From positions 1 to 40,256 of IMG/VR virus record IMGVR_UViG_3300024309_000102: a stretch of 40,256 bases of DNA; one strand, given 5' to 3'. Positions 5,006 to 30,909 of the stretch are shown piece after piece (the stretch's first letter is position 1; each line of letters opens with the position of its first letter). Position numbers and translations under genes: made by a program. This DNA is from a virus. Taxonomy: Duplodnaviria; Caudoviricetes. The notes under the pieces are model-generated. The model worked only from the letters and a program-made list of their open reading frames with translations. It did not search any database and was not told the origin of the DNA.

Positions 5006-6091
5006 TTATCGGTATGCTTTGGTTAAATCAGCGCTTACGAAATGGCCACGCTTGCGCATGGCGTTCGCGATCAAGGCGCTGTCGTGGTGGCCGTCTGCAT
5101 GCCGCAGCAGGCCCAGATAGCTATTGCCCGTCTCGAAGACCTTTTCTTGGGGCAGCTCTTCAATGCGGCGCAAGGCGGTTCGGATAGATCGTCGGCGCAC
5201 TTCTCGCCGCCATGGTTTGATGACATGGCCGGCGAAATCGACGCCGCGGTCGATGGGCTGGAGGATGGTTTTGCGCGGGTTGAGTTCCAGGCCTAGCCGC
5301 GGCAGGTACGAGTTGACCGAAGCTAGGGCCTGTCCGAGCCACTGCGCGGACGGGTGAAGCAGAACAAAGTCATCCACATAGCGCACGTAATACTTGCCGC
5401 GCAGGCTATGCTTCACGTGCTTATCCAGACCATCCAGCAGGATGTTGGCGAAGAACTGGGACGACAGGTTTCCGATAGGCAGGCCGCAGTGGTCAGGAGC
5501 TTCACACAGACGCTTATGCCTTGGCACTAGGGCCAACGTCGCTCGGTTGCCGCGCACCTCTACGTCGGGCCTTGGGTCGTGGAACAGGATCTGGGCGGCC
5601 AATCGGCGCCACCAGTGTTCTGGAATCTTCCCGCCAACCCGAAGCCACAGATTGCGCTTGTCTATGCTGACGAAGAAATTGGCCAGATCCGCCTTCAGGT
5701 ACATGGCTTGGCGTGACCAGTTCTGCGTGACGCTCCGGATCTTAGATTCCAGGCGTTGGGCGGCGTACAACGTGCCTCGACCGGGAATGCAGGCGCACGA
5801 GTCGGCGATGAAGCTAGCTAGGAAGCGCGGGGCGATTTTGTTGTAAAGCAGGTGGTGAACCACTCGGTCCCGGAAATCGGCCGCCCACACCTCGCGCGGC
5901 TTGGGATGGGTTATCACAAAACAGATCGAGCGGCCGGGGCGGTAAACGCCGCTCCGAAGCTCGTCGTCCAGTTGGGCTAGGTTGCGCTCCAGGTTCATTT
6001 CAAAGCGCAGGGCGCTGGCCGTATTCCTTTTGAGCCGGCGACAGTCGAAGTAAGCCTGCACCAACTCCGCGAACGAATGGCAAGAATCCAT
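5006..6091 (-). CDS. DGR reverse transcriptase
   Basis: YVRYVDD active site, GLPIGNLSSQFFAN (DGR-type GxxxSQ), FRDRVVHH, LKADLANFF; no intron maturase/EN tail; GGAG RBS before ATG 6091 (alternative ATG 6106). Confidence 0.95.
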   Translation of the reverse strand: MDSCHSFAELVQAYFDCRRLKRNTASALRFEMNLERNLAQLDDELRSGVYRPGRSICFVITHPKPREVWAADFRDRVVHHLLYNKIAPRFLASFIADSCACIPGRGTLYAAQRLESKIRSVTQNWSRQAMYLKADLANFFVSIDKRNLWLRVGGKIPEHWWRRLAAQILFHDPRPDVEVRGNRATLALVPRHKRLCEAPDHCGLPIGNLSSQFFANILLDGLDKHVKHSLRGKYYVRYVDDFVLLHPSAQWLGQALASVNSYLPRLGLELNPRKTILQPIDRGVDFAGHVIKPWRREVRRRSIRTALRRIEELPQEKVFETGNSYLGLLRHADGHHDSALIANAMRKRGHFVSADLTKAYR

Positions 6092-6110
6092 AGAAACTCC
6101 GAGCATGATT

Positions 6111-6208
6111 TGCGGACGGGACGAACCCGGAACTCGTTGTTGCGGTTCCAGTTGTTGACGTTGCCGTTCTCGAAATTCACCGCCCAGGCGTTGTTGGAGC
6201 CGTAGGGC
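6111..6208 (-). repeat. DGR template repeat (TR), 98 bp
   Basis: Between avd and RT; reads PYGSNNAWAVNFENGNVNNWNRNNEFRVRPVR with 10 AAY codons; four copies elsewhere differ almost only at its adenines. Confidence 0.97.
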
Positions 6209-6350
6209 GAGATATCACGCTATCCACGTCGCCCCACCGAAGGTTTGCCGGATCAGCGGGGAAACTGCGCGGGACCTGGACGGCCGCAGCCGTTGGTTTC
6301 CACTAGTGCGCATATCGGTGGCCTTGTGGGCCAGCGGCGTGACCAGATCA

Positions 6351-6737
6351 TTAAGCGCGTTGGCCCGGCCGCCGTGACGACGGGGCAGCAAGCGCGTTCT
6401 CGGAGTGTTTCAGCCATCCTGTTGCCTGGCGGCCGATGTTATCGGTCAGCGCGATCGCTTCGCCGTATTGCCCGCGAGAGATCAACCGAAGGTCGGCCGC
6501 CAGCCGTAGCGACAGATTCGCCGCTTCTACCCCTTCCCGAAGGATTCGAATGATGGGCGGTCTGTCCGATGCCGAATTGGCCCGATACACCAGCATGACC
6601 AGCTCGAAGCACTGCTGGCGCAGGCCGGTCCCAAAGTCAGCCTTGTAGTTCCTGGGCATATTGGCCACCAGCTTCGTGACCAACAGGCTCAGGTCATAGG
6701 TAACCTTGAAAATCTTGGTGTCGGTGTGCAGGCTCAT
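6351..6737 (-). CDS. avd: DGR accessory variability determinant (four-helix bundle)
   Basis: 128 aa basic helical protein upstream of TR-RT; MPRNYK..G..LR and IGRQATGWLK motifs of Avd family. Confidence 0.9.
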   Translation of the reverse strand: MSLHTDTKIFKVTYDLSLLVTKLVANMPRNYKADFGTGLRQQCFELVMLVYRANSASDRPPIIRILREGVEAANLSLRLAADLRLISRGQYGEAIALTDNIGRQATGWLKHSENALAAPSSRRPGQRA

Positions 6738-6744
6738 GGCATCG

Positions 6745-6759
6745 GCGGGCTACGCCCGC
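6745..6759 (-). promoter_or_regulatory. DGR target-recognition hairpin after VR1
   Basis: GCGGGC-GTA-GCCCGC, 29 nt 3' of VR1. Confidence 0.8.
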
Positions 6760-6765
6760 AAAGGG

Positions 6766-7179
6766 TTAAAGGGATGAAGCGATGATGCTGCGGACGGGAC
6801 GAACCCGGAACTCGTGGCTGCGGTGCCAGACGTCGACGTTGCCGTGCACGAAATCCACCGCCCAGGCGAAGTAGGAGCCGTAGGGCTTGTTCGTCCAGTA
6901 CCAGTCGTCCTTATCGAACAGGTCCGGCACGTTGATGTAGGCCAGCATCATGTCTTCCTGGTCAGGGGCGCGCCAGTCGCAGTGGCCGTTGACTTCACCC
7001 CGCTCGGCCACGGCCGAAGCCAGATCCTCGAATTCGACGTCTACCAGGTCGAATTCAGCGACGCCGGGAATGATGATGTGATGGGTCACGCCGTCGATGA
7101 GGCGCGACCCGATGAAGACGCCGCCCTGCTCGGGCCATTCCTGCCCGATGGCGGGGGTGCTGGTTGCGGTTGCGGTCAT
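6766..7179 (-). CDS. DGR target protein 1, DUF1566/CLec-like
   Basis: 137 aa; QGGVFIG, DWRAP, WYWT, C-terminal VR ending FRVRPVR; AGGAG RBS. Confidence 0.9.
   Translation of the reverse strand: MTATATSTPAIGQEWPEQGGVFIGSRLIDGVTHHIIIPGVAEFDLVDVEFEDLASAVAERGEVNGHCDWRAPDQEDMMLAYINVPDLFDKDDWYWTNKPYGSYFAWAVDFVHGNVDVWHRSHEFRVRPVRSIIASSL
6789..6886 (-). repeat. Variable repeat VR1
   Basis: 98 bp vs TR: 12 mismatches, all at TR adenines (manual alignment). Confidence 0.95.
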
Positions 7180-7190
7180 GCAAGTCTCCT

Positions 7191-7205
7191 GCGGGCTGCG
7201 CCCGC
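7191..7205 (-). promoter_or_regulatory. DGR hairpin after VR2
   Basis: GCGGGC-GCA-GCCCGC, 30 nt 3' of VR2. Confidence 0.8.
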
Positions 7206-7221
7206 TTAAGGGGTAAATGGA

Positions 7222-7794
7222 TCAATAGGTGAATCTGCGGACGGGACGAACCCGGAACTCGGTGCTGCGGCCCCAGAGGCAGACGTTGCCGTTCTCGAAA
7301 TCCACCGCCCAGGCGTTGCAGGAGCCGTCGGGCGTAGAGGTCCAATAGACCTCCTTCTTGAACAGGTGGGGCAGATTTGCCGCGATGATCTGCTGTTCCC
7401 GCTTGGCGGGCAGGTAGAAGTCGGCGTGACCGTCTGCGCTATATGCCTTGGCGGCACGCGCTGCCGGGTAACTGGCGTTCAGACGGAGGAGGGTATTGGT
7501 GTTCACCAGGCCATCCCAGCTACTTGCTTGAATCTCGCCTTCGTCCGGGCTCCACAAATACTTGCCCTGCAGGTCATCCTCGGCCACGACCAGTCCGTAG
7601 ACAGTGCCGTCGTCGCCTAGGATGTCGCCAGCGTAGATACCGCCTTGGCCGGGCAGCGAAGCGCCGATCAACGCGGGGCGGGACAGTCGGGAGGGTGTGG
7701 AACTCAGGCGCTCGAGGAGCGCGTCAAGCGCGATGCGTGCAGGAACCTCCAGGCGCGAACCGCCGCCCAGATCCAACTGGATCGTGTCGTTCAT
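7222..7794 (-). CDS. DGR target protein 2, DUF1566/CLec-like
   Basis: ATG 7794 after AAGGAAAACC; GQGGIYAG, DFYLPAKRE, YWTST, VR at C-terminus. Confidence 0.9.
   Translation of the reverse strand: MNDTIQLDLGGGSRLEVPARIALDALLERLSSTPSRLSRPALIGASLPGQGGIYAGDILGDDGTVYGLVVAEDDLQGKYLWSPDEGEIQASSWDGLVNTNTLLRLNASYPAARAAKAYSADGHADFYLPAKREQQIIAANLPHLFKKEVYWTSTPDGSCNAWAVDFENGNVCLWGRSTEFRVRPVRRFTY
7236..7333 (-). repeat. Variable repeat VR2
   Basis: 98 bp vs TR: 11 mismatches at adenines plus one T>G near the 5' end. Confidence 0.95.
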
Positions 7795-7881
7795 GGTTTT
7801 CCTTGGGGATTTGCCGCGATTGCGGCGATGGGGCTTGCTCAAGGGCGCAGGAAGCCTTTCGGCGTTCGAGTTCCTGCGCCC

Positions 7882-14187: not shown

Positions 14188-14388
14188 CTACGCTCCGCTC
14201 AGGTCAAAGCGGTGGCCAAGCTTAAATTTGACGAATCCGCCACGCACAACATAGTGCGCACGCTCGCGCTCTGACTTAAGGATTTCATCAAGAGTGGCGG
14301 GTTCATCTTGGTTTCTGACGAGAACGGCCGGCAGATCGGACTTGCCGGCCGGTCGCGGGAACTGCGCGGGCTTCTGGCTTGTCTTCAT
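14188..14388 (-). CDS. Small hypothetical protein overlapping the protease 3' end
   Basis: AGGAAGAGAG upstream of ATG 14388; 66 aa; followed by terminator. Confidence 0.45.
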   Translation of the reverse strand: MKTSQKPAQFPRPAGKSDLPAVLVRNQDEPATLDEILKSERERAHYVVRGGFVKFKLGHRFDLSGA

Positions 14389-15277
14389 GGCTCTCTTCCT
14401 TTGCTTCAAAAAGTAACACAACCGGTTCGCGGCAAGGCGTGGTCGCCAGTGAACCCAATTCTATCAAAAGCTCATTCTCCGCGCTACTTGGCTGTCTGAC
14501 GGACTTGAACAGCCTTTGAGCTTCATCCCTGTCGATCACAAAGCTGTGAGAAGGATAGCCCATCAATAGATTCTCTAATGCTCGTGGAGCGAGGTTTTTA
14601 GGGCGTACATTCAATCTTTGTCCGTAAGCTCTTCCAACAGCCATTGATCGAGCGACTTCGCCAATTTTCTGAGGATCAATCTGGCGGTAGATCGGCTCGA
14701 AGAGCCCTTTGGCCACAGATGACGCAATGTCCGACGCGGTTTTAAGTGTTACTAGGCCCTGGCTATGGTCTTTGATTTGTCTCATGAAAGAGTCAAAGAA
14801 GCGGAATGCGTAATGCTCGAGATTGTCTAAGGCCTCGCTGATGACGAGGCCGGAGTCTCGTTCGTCGATCTCATCTCGCTTGGCCAGTTGAATATCAAGC
14901 GGGCCCAGTTCTGCCTCATCGCTCATAATTAAAGTATTGGCAGTGATTAAGAGCATAGTCCCAGCGCTTTTGCACCAGCCCGCGACAAGCGCTTCGCTTT
15001 GATCGTAAGTGTTCTGGATTGCTCGGCCAATACGAAATGCCACGTCCGGTGATCCACCTGGGGTAGCTAGAACAAAAATGAGTTTCTTTGGTCTGCTTTC
15101 GTTCGCGCGGCGGTCGCGAAGGATCTCCAATGCTCTTTCTTCTAGACCATTGAAGCAAGAGCCATTTATTAGCATGACGTCTGCATCGGACGCCCCGCAT
15201 AGAGCTAGCGCTTTTTCTTTTACCTGCTCAGGGTCTAGCGGCTTGGGCGCCGCTAAGAGATCGGTGGGCTCTTCCAT
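14303..15277 (-). CDS. ClpP-fold serine protease (SDH_sah/SppA-like), accessory gene
   Basis: LATPGGSPDVAFRI, CKSAGTML..AN.LIM...ELGPLDIQL, YPSHSFVIDRDEA; lower GC than phage core. Confidence 0.85.
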   Translation of the reverse strand: MEEPTDLLAAPKPLDPEQVKEKALALCGASDADVMLINGSCFNGLEERALEILRDRRANESRPKKLIFVLATPGGSPDVAFRIGRAIQNTYDQSEALVAGWCKSAGTMLLITANTLIMSDEAELGPLDIQLAKRDEIDERDSGLVISEALDNLEHYAFRFFDSFMRQIKDHSQGLVTLKTASDIASSVAKGLFEPIYRQIDPQKIGEVARSMAVGRAYGQRLNVRPKNLAPRALENLLMGYPSHSFVIDRDEAQRLFKSVRQPSSAENELLIELGSLATTPCREPVVLLFEAKEESHEDKPEARAVPATGRQVRSAGRSRQKPR

Positions 15278-15577
15278 GCTTTATGTTCTCCTCTTTCGAA
15301 TCCGTGTATTTTTCGAAAGGCTAGCCAGCCTGTCTTGCGCCTTACATCAATGGGCCGCGGTGTGCGGCCGCAAAATGCAATACTCTTAGTATCTGGTTAC
15401 GTGCATCGTTAAAGTGCCCAATTCTGCCGGCTTCTCTCACAGTTGGCCACCTTTCTAACTAGCGCATCATGTTATTCGGTGATCACGACCGCACCCACTG
15501 TCCCGCATCATCGTCGCGCAGCCTGGCGCCAGTTACGCCTAATGGCCCAGCCCCTTCAGTGCCTTGGTCGAGTCGAT

Positions 15578-16570
15578 TCAGGTTGCGGCAAAGCGGTTCC
15601 ATCGAAGTACATTTACCGTATGGGGAAATATGAGGAACTTCCCAATTCCCGCATACCCTTCAGCGGTCAAGTGTGCAGTGTCTTTGGCCAGTGAACCAGG
15701 AGGGATCCCTGCAGCCTGGTCCGCCAGGTCTTGTTGGCTGGGCGATTTCCCTAAATCTTCCCAAATTTGAGGAGACGTTAGCCATCCGCTGACGTCAATA
15801 AATCTGTCCCCATAACGCTGGGCATATATCTCATTGACGGCGTTCACCTGATACCGGGCCGGGTTAGACTCCCCGACGTTTCGATTTATGAAGTGGCCGA
15901 GCACGAGGATGCGCTTATTTCTAGCTGACATCCATTCATGCGCCTCATCGGTGTACCGCACGATTTTTTCGATGACCGCTTCTGAATCCCCATTAGGATC
16001 AATATCGTTTTTCCCCATCCAAAGCAACACTGGACCAGTTCGCTCTACCATCCCCTGTTCCGGAATGAATTCAGCGGGGCCATTGAGGCGGACGGGATCC
16101 CCCCCATTCTTTCTAGTAAATTCTAGCGGTCGATCTTCCCCTAGCCGTCGAAGCCTCCCATAGACCCCCTCAACGGTCCCCCAGTATTCGACATATCGAT
16201 AGAAATTGACGTTCGGCGCCGTTACTTCTATCGAGCCGGAAGCTGGGATGGTGTCGGCGGGGAATTTGAGCTTGGCAGCGTGACTACCAAGTCGTGCGCA
16301 TATCGTTTCCACACCTTGGCCAGATACCCCGCCGTTGAACATAGAGGCGCGGAACATGCTGCGTAGCTGAGCATCAAGGAGAGGGGCGGAAGACCAAGAA
16401 TGACTGTCTCCCCAGATTGCCCACTGTTCGGTTTCTTTTTCTTGTCGGGGAGGGATATCGACAGGTTCGGCAGGAGGGGATTTCGCCGCAAGTCGGAAAA
16501 AATAGGCGAGACCAGCTAGCCATGCGCCGCCCACTAGCACTGCCAACGTCAAAAAAATTGTAGTCTTCAT
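15578..16570 (-). CDS. Membrane-anchored SGNH/GDSL hydrolase
   Basis: N-terminal hydrophobic helix; blocks WGDS, NGGVSGQ, WMGKND, DTAH. Confidence 0.8.
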   Translation of the reverse strand: MKTTIFLTLAVLVGGAWLAGLAYFFRLAAKSPPAEPVDIPPRQEKETEQWAIWGDSHSWSSAPLLDAQLRSMFRASMFNGGVSGQGVETICARLGSHAAKLKFPADTIPASGSIEVTAPNVNFYRYVEYWGTVEGVYGRLRRLGEDRPLEFTRKNGGDPVRLNGPAEFIPEQGMVERTGPVLLWMGKNDIDPNGDSEAVIEKIVRYTDEAHEWMSARNKRILVLGHFINRNVGESNPARYQVNAVNEIYAQRYGDRFIDVSGWLTSPQIWEDLGKSPSQQDLADQAAGIPPGSLAKDTAHLTAEGYAGIGKFLIFPHTVNVLRWNRFAAT

Positions 16571-16787: not shown

Positions 16788-17132
16788 TCACTGCGACCAT
16801 TCATAGCCTCTGGCGGCCATCTTCTTGTAGGTCTCTCTGGCGCGGTCCAGCAATTGCGGCACGATCGGCTTCCCAAGATCATCAACCAGAACCACCACGA
16901 CGCCGCACTTACACCCCTCAATGTTTGAGGGGTCAGACCAAAACTCTCTTACTTGTTTGGCTGTGAATAGCTTCCCATGGCGTTCTGCGTGACTCTTCCT
17001 GGTCGTGGGAGAAAGCGCAGACAGGTGCATATACAACTGCTTTGAGCCAAATTTCTTGGCAGAAAGTTCCTCTTGGTCCAGGCGCCGCATACGCGACTCG
17101 TGCAGCGCATAGCTGGCTTCTGATGGGATCAC
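16788..17132 (-). CDS. Stand-alone MuF (head morphogenesis) C-terminal-domain paralog
   Basis: GTG start overlaps cI stop (GTGA); MHLSALSPTTR..H..RH.KLFT...CKC..V.VLVDD.GKP.VP aligns with 29989-30909 C-terminus. Confidence 0.8.
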   Translation of the reverse strand: MIPSEASYALHESRMRRLDQEELSAKKFGSKQLYMHLSALSPTTRKSHAERHGKLFTAKQVREFWSDPSNIEGCKCGVVVVLVDDLGKPIVPQLLDRARETYKKMAARGYEWSQ

Positions 17133-17758
17133 AGCTTGAATCCAACCCAAAACGCACGGCCAATGATCTCGATATCCGGGTCATCGAAGCTCAAGTGCAA
17201 GTCCTCATAAGCGGCAGCATTTTCGGACCGGGCGATGAATCCGCCGTTTCCCTTATATAGACGCTTTACCTTCACTTCATCGTGCTGACGGAAGGCGTAG
17301 ACCTTTCCGTTGACGATCGACGTCGCGCCACGGTTAACCAGGATCGTCGCGCCGTCCGGGATGAGGGTCTCCATACTGTCCCCTTTCACCGACACAGACA
17401 CTGTCTGTTCCGGGGTTGCTCCCGCGGATCGCAGGAAGTCTGCTCGGAACGATAGCCGAGTCATCTCGTCTTCGGTCAAAACAATCTCGCCATGACCGGC
17501 GGACAGGCGTACGTCCAGGCGCCTGATGGAGACAAATTCTTCGGTATCGGGGTCGGCCGTTGGCCCCACTGCCAAGTATTCGGGCGTTGTATTAAGCGCT
17601 TTTGCAACGGCCTCTAAGCGAGCACGTTTAGGCGCCGTTTTGCCGTTCTCCCACTGCTGGACGGTCTGCCAGGAAACGCGTACGCGATCGGCAAGCTGCT
17701 CCATCGACAGCCCGAGCTTTTCCCTAAGGTCTTTGATTCGTTTGTGGATCGTCGGCAT
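17129..17758 (-). CDS. cI: CI-like repressor (HTH + S24 autopeptidase)
   Basis: HTH RIKDLREKLGLSMEQLA..VSWQTVQQWENGK; LSAGHG cleavage site; GDSM serine and VKRL lysine. Confidence 0.93.
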   Translation of the reverse strand: MPTIHKRIKDLREKLGLSMEQLADRVRVSWQTVQQWENGKTAPKRARLEAVAKALNTTPEYLAVGPTADPDTEEFVSIRRLDVRLSAGHGEIVLTEDEMTRLSFRADFLRSAGATPEQTVSVSVKGDSMETLIPDGATILVNRGATSIVNGKVYAFRQHDEVKVKRLYKGNGGFIARSENAAAYEDLHLSFDDPDIEIIGRAFWVGFKL

Positions 17759-17773
17759 GCGCGCGAGGTTACC

Positions 17774-17835
17774 CACAAGAAAGGCTTGTGTCATTGCAGG
17801 AATTTCTTGCATTGCTAGTTTTTCTTGTATAGAGT
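17774..17835. promoter_or_regulatory. OR operator triplet with PR
   Basis: 17-bp imperfect palindromes CACAAGAAAGGCTTGTG (17774-17790), TGCAGGAATTTCTTGCA (17795-17811), TGCTAGTTTTTCTTGTA (17813-17829); TTGCAT-17-TAGAGT. Confidence 0.85.
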
Positions 17836-17842
17836 GGGCGTC

Positions 17843-18079
17843 ATGGACAAGAACTCCCACATCGCTCAAGCCATCACCAACGCCGGCGGCCCGGTGGCAA
17901 CAGCCAAAAAAACCGGCGCGAACAATTACCAGACCGTCCAGCAATGGGAGCGCTCCGGAAATGTTCCGGCCGAGTATGCCACTGCGTTAGAAGCGGCTTC
18001 CGGCATTTCTCGACGCCTGTTGTGCAAGCAATGGGCGAAGGTTTGGCCGGAACTGGCCAACGAGGCGAGGGCGGCATAA
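17843..18079 (+). CDS. cro: Cro-like HTH regulator
   Basis: 78 aa, divergent from cI; recognition helix QTVQQWE identical to that of CI. Confidence 0.88.
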   Translation: MDKNSHIAQAITNAGGPVATAKKTGANNYQTVQQWERSGNVPAEYATALEAASGISRRLLCKQWAKVWPELANEARAA

Positions 18080-23839: not shown

Positions 23840-23920
23840 TGCGCCCTTTGCTTCCCAGTGGAGAATATTCAACGATTGGATACAATTGTCGCTCACCACT
23901 ATCCGGCGAGCATCCCTCTC

Positions 23921-24922
23921 ATGGCATACGGCGATCCAACAAAATATTCCAAGGGTGAAGTGCGTAGGTCTGGGCTCGCACTTGTTCAAGGCGGAGACGC
24001 TCATGACCGAGAGGTCGTTAACAATTGGCGGAACGCCCATTCCTACATCATCAATACTTTCCAGGCTACATTACGCCTCTATATAAAGCGTAATGATGGC
24101 ATGGATGTTGTCATGGCGCAGCGCTTAAAGCGTCTTAAGACAATTGTTGACAAGTTAGCCACGGGCCGAGCCCGGGATTTGTCGACCATGCATGACCTAG
24201 CTGGATGCCGACTGATTTTCAATTCGATTGGGGATCTTCAGGAGTACCGGACCCAATTCCACGGGACGCGCGCCAAACATGAGCGGGTCGATGAGGATCG
24301 TTACGACTACATTGCTCACCCTAAGGCCACTGGGTACCGCGGTATTCATGAGGTATACAAATATGTGGCTTCCTCCGGAGGAGGGGAGAAGTACAACGGC
24401 CTGAAAATAGAGATCCAGTTTCGCACAAGAACTCAGCATGCTTGGGCCACAGCAGTAGAGATCAGCGATTTGCTCGACGGAGCTCGAATAAAGTTTGATC
24501 AAGGAGCAAACCCGAAGCGGGAGCGTCTATTTGTCTTGGCAAGTGAGTACTTGGCTCGTGTCAAAGAGGGGACATATGGGTACTGTCCTGATCTCACGGA
24601 TGCCCAGCTATGCGCCGAAATGCGTGGTCTAGAGAACGAGCTAGGAGTCATTCGCACTCTAGACATGGCTCGAAAAAGCAATACAGTCATTCCGCAGAAG
24701 AAGCATATTGTTCTACATTTCCACATGGACGAGCTTTCGGCAAAGGGGTTCAGCGACGCTAAGCAGGCAATGGAGTTCCGTGATGATGTGGAGAACGTTT
24801 ACCCCGAGGACGATATCGTGTACGTGAGTGCCGCCTCCCCCAGAGCAATCGCTGATGCATTTCGGAACTACTTCAGGGATGCCGTCGATTTCGTCGAGTA
24901 CGTGAAGCCAGCCCTTGGCTGA
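23921..24922 (+). CDS. capRel: RelA/SpoT-domain protein, CapRel-like fused toxSAS
   Basis: YSKGEV, NWRNAH, AQRLKR..TIVDKL, MHDLAGCR, DYIAHPK.TGYRGIH, IEIQFRT..QHAWATAVE; C-terminal DDIVYV..AFRNYF; start may be GTG 23858. Confidence 0.8.
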   Translation: MAYGDPTKYSKGEVRRSGLALVQGGDAHDREVVNNWRNAHSYIINTFQATLRLYIKRNDGMDVVMAQRLKRLKTIVDKLATGRARDLSTMHDLAGCRLIFNSIGDLQEYRTQFHGTRAKHERVDEDRYDYIAHPKATGYRGIHEVYKYVASSGGGEKYNGLKIEIQFRTRTQHAWATAVEISDLLDGARIKFDQGANPKRERLFVLASEYLARVKEGTYGYCPDLTDAQLCAEMRGLENELGVIRTLDMARKSNTVIPQKKHIVLHFHMDELSAKGFSDAKQAMEFRDDVENVYPEDDIVYVSAASPRAIADAFRNYFRDAVDFVEYVKPALG

Positions 24923-25680: not shown

Positions 25681-26577
25681 TTAGCTGTTTGGTTGGCTAT
25701 CAACGTCACTTCTTTCGGCTCGGGCAAGGTCAGAATTGAAAGCTCGAATTTCGAACGGAAACGAATTCATGTTCGTGCAGAGCCTTATGAACGCGTCACT
25801 GGATAGAGGAAGGTTGTCAAGTAATGCATACCGCTCCAGGTACAGTGTGAATGCGCGGCCCTGCGGGTAAAAGGCGTTGAAGAACAGAAAGCGAAGTTCT
25901 GGACTAGACAGCCGAGCCCTTACGATTGATACGTAGTCCCATTTTTCACTCTCCGTAAGGCCGGGGTGGCGGTCGACCCAGCGAACCAAAGTGAACAACG
26001 TCCGTATCAGGCGGCCGAGTTGAGGCTCATGCTCTCGGTAAACCAGCAACCACCAGTTGTGTATTTCAACGCGCAGCTCAACTCGTTGGTTTTCTTTGTT
26101 TTCCTCGCTGTTGCGTGAAAACTCGTTCAATCGGTACTCTGCGATCATGCCGTTGACCGCGCCGTCCGTTTCGATCATTTTTCCTAAGGCGTGAACGCCT
26201 GAGAGCCACTTGCCCGAGCGCTCAATTTCGAGCGAAGAAACCGCGTCGCTATAAGCAGCGAGCCAGGTGAAGAACGTCTGCTCGAATCCTTGCCGCGCAA
26301 TTTGAGTTCGTTGCTCCTCCAATTCGTCCTGCTGTGACCGCAGGGTTAAGACTAGGAGGATTATTGTGACGAGCCCGGCTACCGGGTTTACGACTCCACC
26401 TATGAAATCACCAAATTCTCCCCAGGTAGATGTGTTTGTCGAGAATGGCCCGTCGAAGTGATATCGGTAGACGGAGAACGCGGCTACCGCTGCTAAGAAT
26501 GGCAGCGTGATGGTGGCAGCAACCAGCTTAATGGTCCGCTTAGTTCGAGATGCTCTCTTTTGGCGCGATGTGGGCAT
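25681..26577 (-). CDS. Putative phage abortive infection protein (putAbiC-like), two TM helices
   Basis: WGEFGDFIGGVVNP, QQDEL, FEQTFF, YVSIVRARLSSPEL..LFFN, YALLDNL; opposite strand to late genes. Confidence 0.75.
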   Translation of the reverse strand: MPTSRQKRASRTKRTIKLVAATITLPFLAAVAAFSVYRYHFDGPFSTNTSTWGEFGDFIGGVVNPVAGLVTIILLVLTLRSQQDELEEQRTQIARQGFEQTFFTWLAAYSDAVSSLEIERSGKWLSGVHALGKMIETDGAVNGMIAEYRLNEFSRNSEENKENQRVELRVEIHNWWLLVYREHEPQLGRLIRTLFTLVRWVDRHPGLTESEKWDYVSIVRARLSSPELRFLFFNAFYPQGRAFTLYLERYALLDNLPLSSDAFIRLCTNMNSFPFEIRAFNSDLARAERSDVDSQPNS

Positions 26578-28455: not shown

Positions 28456-28659
28456 ATGGCGATCTTCAAACTGGCGGCGCTGGACGGCACCGTGTCGATG
28501 GTCGTCCGCGCGCGCTGCATTAGCTGTGCCCGGGCCGTTGCGGTCGAACACGCCGGGCCCGAAGGTACGCGGGTCTGGCGCGATTCCAGCCTATCCAGCG
28601 TCGAGCTGGTGCGCGAAACGGATAAGACGGCCCTGATTCTCAGGGCGGAGTGGATATGA
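28456..28659 (+). CDS. Small hypothetical protein
   Basis: 67 aa with CxxC; ATGA overlap with portal. Confidence 0.6.
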   Translation: MAIFKLAALDGTVSMVVRARCISCARAVAVEHAGPEGTRVWRDSSLSSVELVRETDKTALILRAEWI

Positions 28660-30041
28660 CGGACAACCTTCAACTGGCGGTCAACCAAGCACTGGATGAC
28701 CTCCGGATGGCGCGCGCCCGTATGGGGCTGCTCAATCCGGGCGGCCTGGGCCTCGACCAGAAACGCAACATGGCGTGGTGCGAGTACGGGTTTCCGGAAA
28801 GTGTCAGCTACGAAATGCTGTTCAACCTCTACAAGCGGGGCGGCATCGCCCATGGTGCGGTGAATAAGCTGGCCGGGCTGTGCTGGAAGACGTCGCCGGA
28901 AGTCATTCAGGGCGGTGAGGAAGAGCGCTCCGAGGACGAAACGGCCTGGGAGAAGTCGGTCTCGGCGACGCTGACCCCGTCGCTGTGGCGGCAGTTCGCG
29001 GACGCCGACCGCCGCCGGCTGGTGGGCCGCTATGCCGGCATCATTCTGCGCCTGCGCGACGGCCGGGAATGGGATCAGCCCATCCAAGTCCGCGACAAAG
29101 GCCTGGCTGGCATGATCGTGTCATGGGCCGGTGCGCTCACAGTGGCGGAATGGGATACCGACCTCAAGTCGGACGCCTACGGCATGCCCAAGATGTGGCA
29201 GTACGCTGAGACTGGTATTAGCGGCCAGCCAGCACGAAAAGTCCGGATCCACCCCGATCGCGTGTTCATCCTGGGCGACTACGCGAACGATGCCGTGGGC
29301 TTTCTGGAGCCCGCTTACAACGCCTTCGTCAGCCTTGAAAAGGTGGAGGGAGGATCCGGCGAAGCCTTCCTGAAGAATGCCGCGCGCCAGGTGTCGGTCA
29401 ACTTCGACAAAGACGCCAATCTGATGTCCATTGCGGCATCCTACGGGGTCAAGATCGAAGATTTGCAGGAGAGGTTTAACGAGGCCGCCCGCGAGATCAA
29501 TCGCGGCAACGACGCCATGCTGATCACCCAGGGCGCCTCCGTCGCGCCGCTGGTGTCGCAGGTGCCTGATCCTCAGCCCACCTACAACGTGAACCTGCAG
29601 ACCGCCTGCGCGGCCATGGATATCCCGTCGAGGATCCTCATCGGCAACCAGTCGGGCGAGCGCGCCAGTACCGAAGACCAGCGGTATTTCAACGCCCGGT
29701 GCCAGGCGCGCCGAAATACGGAGCTGTCTTTCGAGATCCACGCCTTCGTCGCGCACCTGATCCGTATCGGGGTGCTGAAGGCCCAGACCGAATACTCGGT
29801 GATCTGGGACGACCTGAACGAGGCCACGCCGGCCGACAAGCTGGCCAGCGCCAAGCTGATGAGCGACGTCAACACGGCGGCAATGGGTACCGGCGAGCAG
29901 GTATTCGACACGAACGAGATCCGCACGGCCGCCGGCTTCGAGCCGCGCGACGAGGCCGAGCCGCTCCCTGACGATGATGAGGACGAGGATGGCCCGGGCG
30001 CCAATCCTGCCGACGAACCAGGCCGATCCGACCGGGGTTGA
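28656..30041 (+). CDS. Portal protein (DUF1073-type)
   Basis: 461 aa after terL; EYGFP, IHPDRVFI, IPSRILIG.QSGERASTED. Confidence 0.88.
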   Translation: MTDNLQLAVNQALDDLRMARARMGLLNPGGLGLDQKRNMAWCEYGFPESVSYEMLFNLYKRGGIAHGAVNKLAGLCWKTSPEVIQGGEEERSEDETAWEKSVSATLTPSLWRQFADADRRRLVGRYAGIILRLRDGREWDQPIQVRDKGLAGMIVSWAGALTVAEWDTDLKSDAYGMPKMWQYAETGISGQPARKVRIHPDRVFILGDYANDAVGFLEPAYNAFVSLEKVEGGSGEAFLKNAARQVSVNFDKDANLMSIAASYGVKIEDLQERFNEAAREINRGNDAMLITQGASVAPLVSQVPDPQPTYNVNLQTACAAMDIPSRILIGNQSGERASTEDQRYFNARCQARRNTELSFEIHAFVAHLIRIGVLKAQTEYSVIWDDLNEATPADKLASAKLMSDVNTAAMGTGEQVFDTNEIRTAAGFEPRDEAEPLPDDDEDEDGPGANPADEPGRSDRG

Positions 30042-30909
30042 CCGGCTGGAGCGCGGCGCGATCCGCGAACTGGCGCGCCGGGTGGCGCAGGTCCGCAGGG
30101 CATATGTCGGGGCCATCGACCGGTTCCAGCCCGAGCTGGCGGTCAACAAGCGCTACACCTTCCGGCTGGATCCGGCCGTCCTGGCCAGGGTCTACGACGA
30201 TCTGGACCGGCTGACGGACTCGGTCTTCCTGGAAGGCGGCCAGCAGCAGCTCTGGTTCTTCGACAGCTACGTTGGCGTGGCGTACCTGCGCGGCACCGCC
30301 CAGGAATTTGCCAACCTCGCACAGCAGTCGCCGGCGTACCAGGCCGGCCGCCAGGACCTGGCCAACCTGCTGCGCAGCCGCCCCTACCAGGATCGGATTG
30401 CGCTCATCCGGGCGCGCGAATTCGAGGAGATGAAGGGACTTTCCGGCCAGATGAAGGCCGATATGGGGCGGCTGCTGTCGGACGGCATGGCCCGCGGCTT
30501 GAATCCGCGGGAGATCGCTAGGAACCTGACGGAACAGGCAGGCATCGAGGAGCGGCGGGCGAAGCGCATCGCTCGGACCGAGATCACGACCGCACTGCGC
30601 CGGGCCCGGATGGACGAGGCAGACGACGCCGCCGACACCTACGGCACGCAGGCGAAGCAGATGCACATGTCGGCGCTCAGCCCGACCACGCGGGCCCACC
30701 ACGCCAGACGGCACGCCAAGCTGTTTACGACGGACCAGCAGCGCGCCTGGTGGGCCAAGGATGGGAATTCGATCAACTGCAAATGCAGCACGGTCACCGT
30801 GCTGGTGGACGACCATGGCAAGCCCCTGGTGCCCGGCATCGTGGAGCGGGCTCGCAAGAACTACCAGGTCATGAAATCCAAGGGCAAGGGCGCCTGGACG
30901 GAGAAATGA
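29989..30909 (+). CDS. MuF / SPP1 gp7-like head morphogenesis protein
   Basis: After portal; RAKRIARTE, TR..H..RH, INCKC. Confidence 0.9.
   Translation: MARAPILPTNQADPTGVDRLERGAIRELARRVAQVRRAYVGAIDRFQPELAVNKRYTFRLDPAVLARVYDDLDRLTDSVFLEGGQQQLWFFDSYVGVAYLRGTAQEFANLAQQSPAYQAGRQDLANLLRSRPYQDRIALIRAREFEEMKGLSGQMKADMGRLLSDGMARGLNPREIARNLTEQAGIEERRAKRIARTEITTALRRARMDEADDAADTYGTQAKQMHMSALSPTTRAHHARRHAKLFTTDQQRAWWAKDGNSINCKCSTVTVLVDDHGKPLVPGIVERARKNYQVMKSKGKGAWTEK

Follow-up and report, generated by a model that had tools for sequence, protein, structure and literature searches.

The window, a stretch of 40,256 nucleotides from a provirus record that is 83% complete, combines a lambdoid switch with an ES18/phi297-like head module and carries, behind its cI repressor gene, a stand-alone gene for the C-terminal domain of the MuF minor head protein. 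Our analysis indicates that the family to which this short gene belongs is real, under selection and apparently uncharacterised: cargo that descends from a virion protein and occupies positions where genes expressed in the lysogen are found. The best reading of its function, which we advance tentatively as a candidate, is a decoy made by the lysogen that leaves the progeny of MuF-using phages non-infectious; that the gene has some putative anti-phage role, of whatever kind, we consider about an even bet. The features on which the argument rests are collected in Table 1.

Table 1. Features of the window around the short gene, the immunity switch and the head module
Feature	Position	Strand	Details
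Stand-alone MuF C-terminal-domain gene	17132 to 16788	minus	114 aa, PHROG 22052 family; AlphaFold2 mean pLDDT 95.9; short-family clade
cI-type repressor	17129..17758	minus	209 aa from ATG 17758; HTH_3 and Peptidase_S24, phrog_4
Candidate PRM-like promoter	17766..17794	minus	ATGACA-17 nt-TAACCT, 7 nt before the cI ATG; by eye
Three 15-bp imperfect palindromes, candidate right operators between cI and cro	17775-17789, 17796-17810, 17814-17828		by eye
Divergent Cro-like gene	17843..18079	plus	phrog_35; YdaS-like below cut-off
Portal ORF (longest frame), directly upstream of MuF	28650..30041	plus	PF06381, phrog_146
Structural MuF, ES18 gp6/phi297-type head morphogenesis protein	29989..30909	plus	306 aa; PF04233 E 6e-14, phrog_758; model pLDDT 96.9

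The GTG start of the short frame (17132-17130) overlaps the TGA of cI (17131-17129) as GTGA, and the plus-strand reading of 16788-17132 has many stops. An earlier note on this DNA had described an intact 114-aa frame and the overlap without stating the strand; both are found on the minus strand, with the protein text that it quoted. Its claim of homology to the phage's own MuF is likewise borne out, as 50 of 106 aligned positions (47%) are identical between the short protein and MuF residues 197-299 (BLASTP E value, 1e-33). The top profile for the window protein is PHROG 22052 (E 6.5e-37, 102 of 115 positions, 8-108), which the Pseudomonas aeruginosa form matches over 115 of 115 positions, and phrog_758 comes second (E 1.2e-27). 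The cut-offs of PF04233 (18.4 bits against 29.6, over profile positions 56-111 only) and TIGR01641 (17.9 against 39.65) are not reached. MuF homology covers all 114 residues, and there is no toxin domain at the C terminus.

The claim that the gene is a truncated paralog arising from the phage's own MuF has to be given up. Profile and tree place it in a separate stand-alone family, and its nearest relative, 96% identical and with the same cI, comes from a phage with neither cognate MuF nor cognate portal. The two genes of the window share no DNA-level similarity (best blastn match, 11 nt) and differ in GC3 (0.635 in the short gene versus 0.883 in the MuF gene), and the short gene is therefore an old homologue; together with the tree, these results rule out a recent duplication. 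Its place behind cI is about 11.5 kb away from the portal gene.

A length-limited search returned 29 matches among 33 candidates, mostly of 97-124 aa and including proteins of Achromobacter, Corticimicrobacter and Lampropedia, and a profile search returned 357 representatives, with further solo forms among them. Several members have N-terminal extensions of ~50-140 aa, some of which start in an amphipathic-looking or hydrophobic way (P0031, P0036, P0041, and P0052), and the net charge of the family is modest (+2.8, sd 3.7). For phylogenetic trees, 137 rows were reduced to 102 distinct domains (44 short and 58 full-length), without near-copy proteins and two fragments from the length-limited search, and with two contig-cut loci assigned to the full-length class by hand. 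A single branch separates all 44 short rows from the 58 full-length rows (SH-aLRT, 98; quick LG+G4 tree on 113 columns). When helix 1 and columns 72-73 are left out, the whole short group needs 3 label changes, and a 30-row clade with the window gene has support of 95; with the diagnostic columns removed, a tree constrained to unite the short rows is not rejected and beats the free tree by 17 lnL units (p-AU, 0.73). These trees, which rest on 76-113 columns, allow a single origin of the short family but do not prove it.

Purifying selection is seen at the family level, in keeping with the earlier argument from the still-open frame. For two P. aeruginosa pairs, dN/dS (Nei-Gojobori) is 0.13 (L013-L041; Fisher p, 1e-8) and 0.20 (L041-L060; p, 2e-6), and the window gene gives 0.12-0.23 against L038, L014, and L017, at dS values of 1.6-2.9 that are near saturation; three other window pairs have saturated dS. 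The comparison with the nearest relative, L001, is uninformative (2 synonymous and 4 non-synonymous changes; dN/dS, 0.62; p, 0.63), as are three other close pairs at 0.30-0.36. A dN/dS comparison had been proposed as a check against neutral decay, and the informative pairs, at 0.12-0.23, lie well under 1.

Full-text searches of the literature yielded no account of a solo MuF C-terminal protein or of a MuF-derived defence; the gene could nevertheless be among those in supplementary P. aeruginosa moron or defence screens. The ESM Atlas gave MuF-like and hypothetical clusters and nothing new, and a plasmid search returned 17 records, mostly phage minor head genes. In NC_074664.1 (L012, 5980-6327), the short gene is labelled "oligosaccharide repeat unit polymerase," as is its upstream neighbour, which is likely an error.

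We find strong conservation of the MuF core, with S38, L40, T44, H48, R51, and C74 invariant in 44/44 short and 58/58 full-length rows, and H52 and C76 present in 43/44 and 58/58, respectively. Other full-length hallmarks are gone: the motif A-R-[TS]-E, found in 58/58 full-length rows, is absent from the short rows, and the Asn before CxC occurs in 54/58 full-length versus 0/44 short rows. The retention of His and Cys residues that the earlier note reported thus holds for the core, but not for all hallmarks, since ARTE and this Asn have been lost family-wide. The short family has residues of its own instead, H11 (36/44), M15 (38/44), and G73 (42/44), and the window protein shows the corresponding H-x-x-R-M helix and G-C-x-C. 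From the His and Cys residues, H48, H52, C74, and C76 may bind a metal in the short protein.

AlphaFold2 predicts the same elements, with similarly high confidence (Table 1), in the short protein and in MuF 198-297. The N-terminal helical arm is missing, as the short protein begins, in the predicted models, midway along MuF helix 173-218. The top BFVD matches of the short model are MuF and minor capsid proteins (best E, 0.015). Against solved structures, phmmer with MuF gave 0 matches, Foldseek gave nothing at E ≤ 0.001 for either the short or the full-length model, and a wide VIA search with the short model gave nothing clear (best Z, 4.8); this absence of a clear structural match does not show that the fold is new. 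When full-length MuF and the short protein were modelled as a complex, the score was 0.01, which counts neither for nor against binding.

Several full-length MuFs contain an intein-like element exactly between the Asn and the first Cys (junctions in 6 proteins, far end in 7), and Pfam intein matches were obtained in 4/4 full-length MuFs tested, one of them above cut-off. Inteins tend to sit at critical sites, and an insertion at Asn/Cys therefore suggests that the short family alters a likely functional center. The insertion at this N/C-x-C site of ES18-type MuFs was seen in P0054, P0063, P0095, P0098, P0113, P0124, and P0170 and in G009, G010, and G030; a literature search on it gave nothing.

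Genomic context was compared in 17 distinct short loci, hand-picked to avoid near copies. The earlier note had proposed looking for cI-linked short MuF homologs, and these exist: the gene stands directly behind an S24 repressor, with ORFs of ~210-380 aa, in 6 of the 17 (L014, L015, L037, L038, L039, and L040). Four further loci, of P. aeruginosa-type phages, have it between tail and lysis genes, upstream of the endolysin and in late-operon direction, and two have it between tail chaperone and tape measure (L016, in late-operon orientation, and L061, antisense). It lies near integrase or excisionase-like genes in three (L017, L085, and L086), antisense among early genes in L094, and between the chromosomal genes PhoX and YjbR in L024. 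Outside the six repressor-linked loci, its positions are slots of the moron type, and head genes were beside it in none of the 17 loci. A search upstream of the gene in P. aeruginosa loci gave MuF matches crossing a TGA, which were dismissed (best E, 0.12). A HIRAN-domain gene often comes next after the short gene in P. aeruginosa phages (L042, 5980-6735), and the two may form a unit.

The gene next in line is BstA in L038 (E 6e-120) and a PD-Lambda-5_A-like one in L015 (E 2e-20, partial match). Among 37 loci with a relative of the window cI, the short gene follows cI in 1 only, the record of L001. Slot proteins behind related cIs match PADLOC models in 6 of 22 cases, mostly candidate (PDC) systems; the same slot also holds non-defence cargo, such as BamE-like, tRNA_anti-like, and lipoprotein-looking proteins, and PADLOC has no model for the short gene. 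We conclude that the short gene forms an exchangeable cassette and that the hotspot in which it sits holds cargo that is defensive in part only.

Other contents of the slot and of the window were recorded alongside. Next behind the short gene is an SGNH/GDSL protein with an N-terminal hydrophobic segment (15578-16570, minus), which matches the tail-fibre region phrog_11419 (E 2e-42) and may be either a second cargo gene related to virions or a de-acetylase acting at the surface. At about 15483-15530 (minus) lies a stub that matches the C terminus of another type of repressor, the one seen in L002/L003; L216, L220, and L223 have similar DNA after cI, perhaps a recombination anchor for the slot. 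The same slot has a ClpP-like SDH protease gene of low GC (14303-15277, minus), and L218 (2501-4256) has tandem repressors, a window-type cI followed by a 356-aa HTH and S24 repressor. The early-left region of the window contains a diversity-generating retroelement (5006-7842, minus), with reverse transcriptase (5006-6106), Avd (6351-6737), a template repeat at about 6083-6222, and two Lcl_C-domain targets whose variable repeats lie at about 6761-6900 and 7208-7347; by eye, the core differences fall at template adenines. A RelA/SpoT-domain gene (23858-24922, plus) matches PADLOC PDC-S33 (E 2e-91), and a putative AbiC gene (25681-26577, minus) precedes the terminase.

The short gene is likely made together with cI in the lysogen, judging from its slot, the PRM-like site picked by eye, and the consensus scan, in which no terminator appeared on the minus strand from cI to the short ORF. 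A cI message from the PRM-like site would be near-leaderless, as in lambda. The consensus promoter scan did not flag the candidate site because its -10 box matches at 3/6 positions only, and promoter and terminator scans stayed at shuffle level in the window (2 versus 2.4 and 5 versus 5.1) and likewise in L042. The GTGA overlap by itself is weak proof of coupling, as GTGA or ATGA ends 8 of 20 related cI genes, in two of which unrelated ORFs start there, so that it is partly a property of related cI gene ends. The P. aeruginosa homologue L042 was present in 14 RNA library rows from 7 studies. Four of these rows were aligned, as assembled contigs with no DNA control: one 739-nt contig spans 5960-6698, two others stop at 6754 and 6787, and run X1 has no cover there. 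A terminator-like hairpin lies at 7022-7043 of L042, ahead of the endolysin.

Carriers of the gene were also searched for the head module. Among 35 carriers, 15 are virus records at least 90% complete, and 6 of these 15 encode both the cognate MuF and the cognate portal. The other 9, among them the 96%-identical relative that shares the window cI, have neither the cognate MuF nor a close homologue of the portal. Another MuF scores above cut-off in three of them and weakly in one, and five have no other PF04233 match. As 9/15 near-complete carriers are without the cognate head module, the short gene travels as cargo, with the limit that many P. aeruginosa records are near copies and the counts are thus not independent events. 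The same host family also offers possible MuF-bearing targets: matches were obtained in 15 of 301 genomes from the family of G031, at 3 short and 13 full-length places.

The defence idea of the earlier note, a dominant-negative decoy, is the leading candidate. Its observed part consists of the anatomy (no N-terminal arm, predicted elements as in MuF 198-297), a lineage of its own, purifying selection, and a distribution that does not depend on the head module. The short gene would be co-transcribed with cI from PRM and translationally coupled to it, and the arm-less domain, with its MuF core, would take up MuF's position in a rival's heads, at the portal vertex or at the DNA end. Rival particles with the decoy in MuF's place would infect poorly, giving defence at the population level, of the Tab/Tai type, and the carrier would avoid self-harm because PRM would shut off at induction. 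That this amounts to a prophage defence family from a virion protein, in which a repressor-coexpressed solo MuF domain poisons the portal-vertex step of competitors' heads, is conceivable though somewhat doubtful. By analogy, the MuF step can matter: in the TP901-1 results of PMC4493119, a mutant lacking the gp7-like MCP1 lysogenised at 2.7e2 versus 7.5e6 for wild type, a ~28,000-fold drop. In SPP1, where gp7 is brought into the procapsid by the portal, about 25% of the virions that lack it are still infectious (PMC6316719), so that protection by a decoy could be small; the TP901-1 analogue is by far the more important of the two. One survey puts MuF in 57% of 931 siphoviruses (PMC5576092), and a 2025 meeting report still calls its role unknown (PMC12254948). 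The main objections to the decoy are three: self-inhibition, which the window phage and 6/15 near-complete carriers, all with a cognate MuF, would risk; the late-operon orientation in P. aeruginosa phages; and the lost invariant residues, for if ARTE and the Asn before CxC form the partner surface, the short family cannot compete with MuF.

The lost residues lead directly to the strongest alternative, in our view rather unlikely, that the gene encodes a small protein that binds a metal or nucleic acid and has been exapted for a role in the lysogen unrelated to heads, be it a decoy for a host sensor of MuF, a regulator, or another fitness function. Replacement of MuF-invariant residues by H11, M15, and G73 is as expected for a new function, and the member among chromosomal genes in L024 and the five complete carriers without another MuF point the same way; the whole MuF core is nevertheless kept, which fits mimicry, and the variant in which the protein shields the phage's own MuF is countered by carriers without MuF. 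An unlikely alternative acts at entry, where binding of the incoming DNA end or of ejected MuF near the membrane would block delivery or circularisation and the cell would survive. It draws on the slot behind the window cI, which we take to be the rexAB position, and on the N-terminal extensions of several members, but a membrane segment is lacking in the window protein (best 19-residue hydropathy, 1.39), and the net charge is modest across the family. Gp7-type proteins are, in PMC4493119, proposed to bind DNA and control ejection, which would suit such exclusion.

The late-operon direction of the gene in L016 and the P. aeruginosa phages would instead suit a lytic-cycle accessory, an arm-less second MuF packaged in, or assisting, the carrier's own particles. 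We regard this as improbable, given the cI linkage in 6 loci, the antisense placement in L061 and L094, and the 9/15 near-complete carriers without cognate portal and MuF. A neutral MuF gene fragment left by recombination, already disfavored, is very improbable. Although the slot holds other relics, such as the repressor stub, and the closest pair has a dN/dS of 0.62 (on 6 changes), frames with their own starts are open across genera and have diagnostic residues in common, dN/dS is well under 1 in the informative pairs, and an upstream MuF remnant is absent from the 15 loci tested (best E, 0.12).

Should the decoy reading and its defensive role be true, bacteria would have an equivalent of the Fv1-like restriction factors, and the role of MuF could be approached genetically. 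The family could then influence the range of temperate phages able to infect lysogens of P. aeruginosa and Achromobacter, and a domesticated structural gene that interferes at the head stage would join the tail-stage action of Tab and Tai. A natural, selected, arm-less MuF divides the protein into two parts that can be tested separately and draws attention to ARTE and the N-C-x-C intein site.

Lambda rexAB, which is read through from cI, has a position like that of the short gene, with no sequence relation in a Pfam scan. PHROG 22052, a family with no assigned function, lies between tail and lysis genes in annotated phages, whereas the window member lies behind cI. With the MuF1 minor head proteins (SPP1 gp7, TP901-1 MCP1, and ES18 gp6), the short protein shares the C-terminal sequence and predicted fold, but it lacks ~195 N-terminal residues, ARTE, the Asn before CxC, and an adjoining portal. 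It also differs from the "short MuF" as defined in PMC5576092, a full MuF without a toxin extension, and from the "MuF-C" described in PMC5512222, a PBECR domain fused behind MuF. The working model here is Tab and Tai, presented in PMC10884400 and PMC11364771 as small lysogen-expressed prophage moron genes that block virion assembly by competitors; both act on tails, whereas the short gene, from a virion protein, would act on heads. Tab is stated to resemble no known domain, and it has a dedicated anti-Tab (PMC10884400). Fv1, enJSRV Gag, and itEBLN, reviewed in PMC6361761, are viral structural genes of which the host carries copies, and these copies restrict viruses related to them, in some cases likely as dominant negatives; they are eukaryotic and offer an analogy only.
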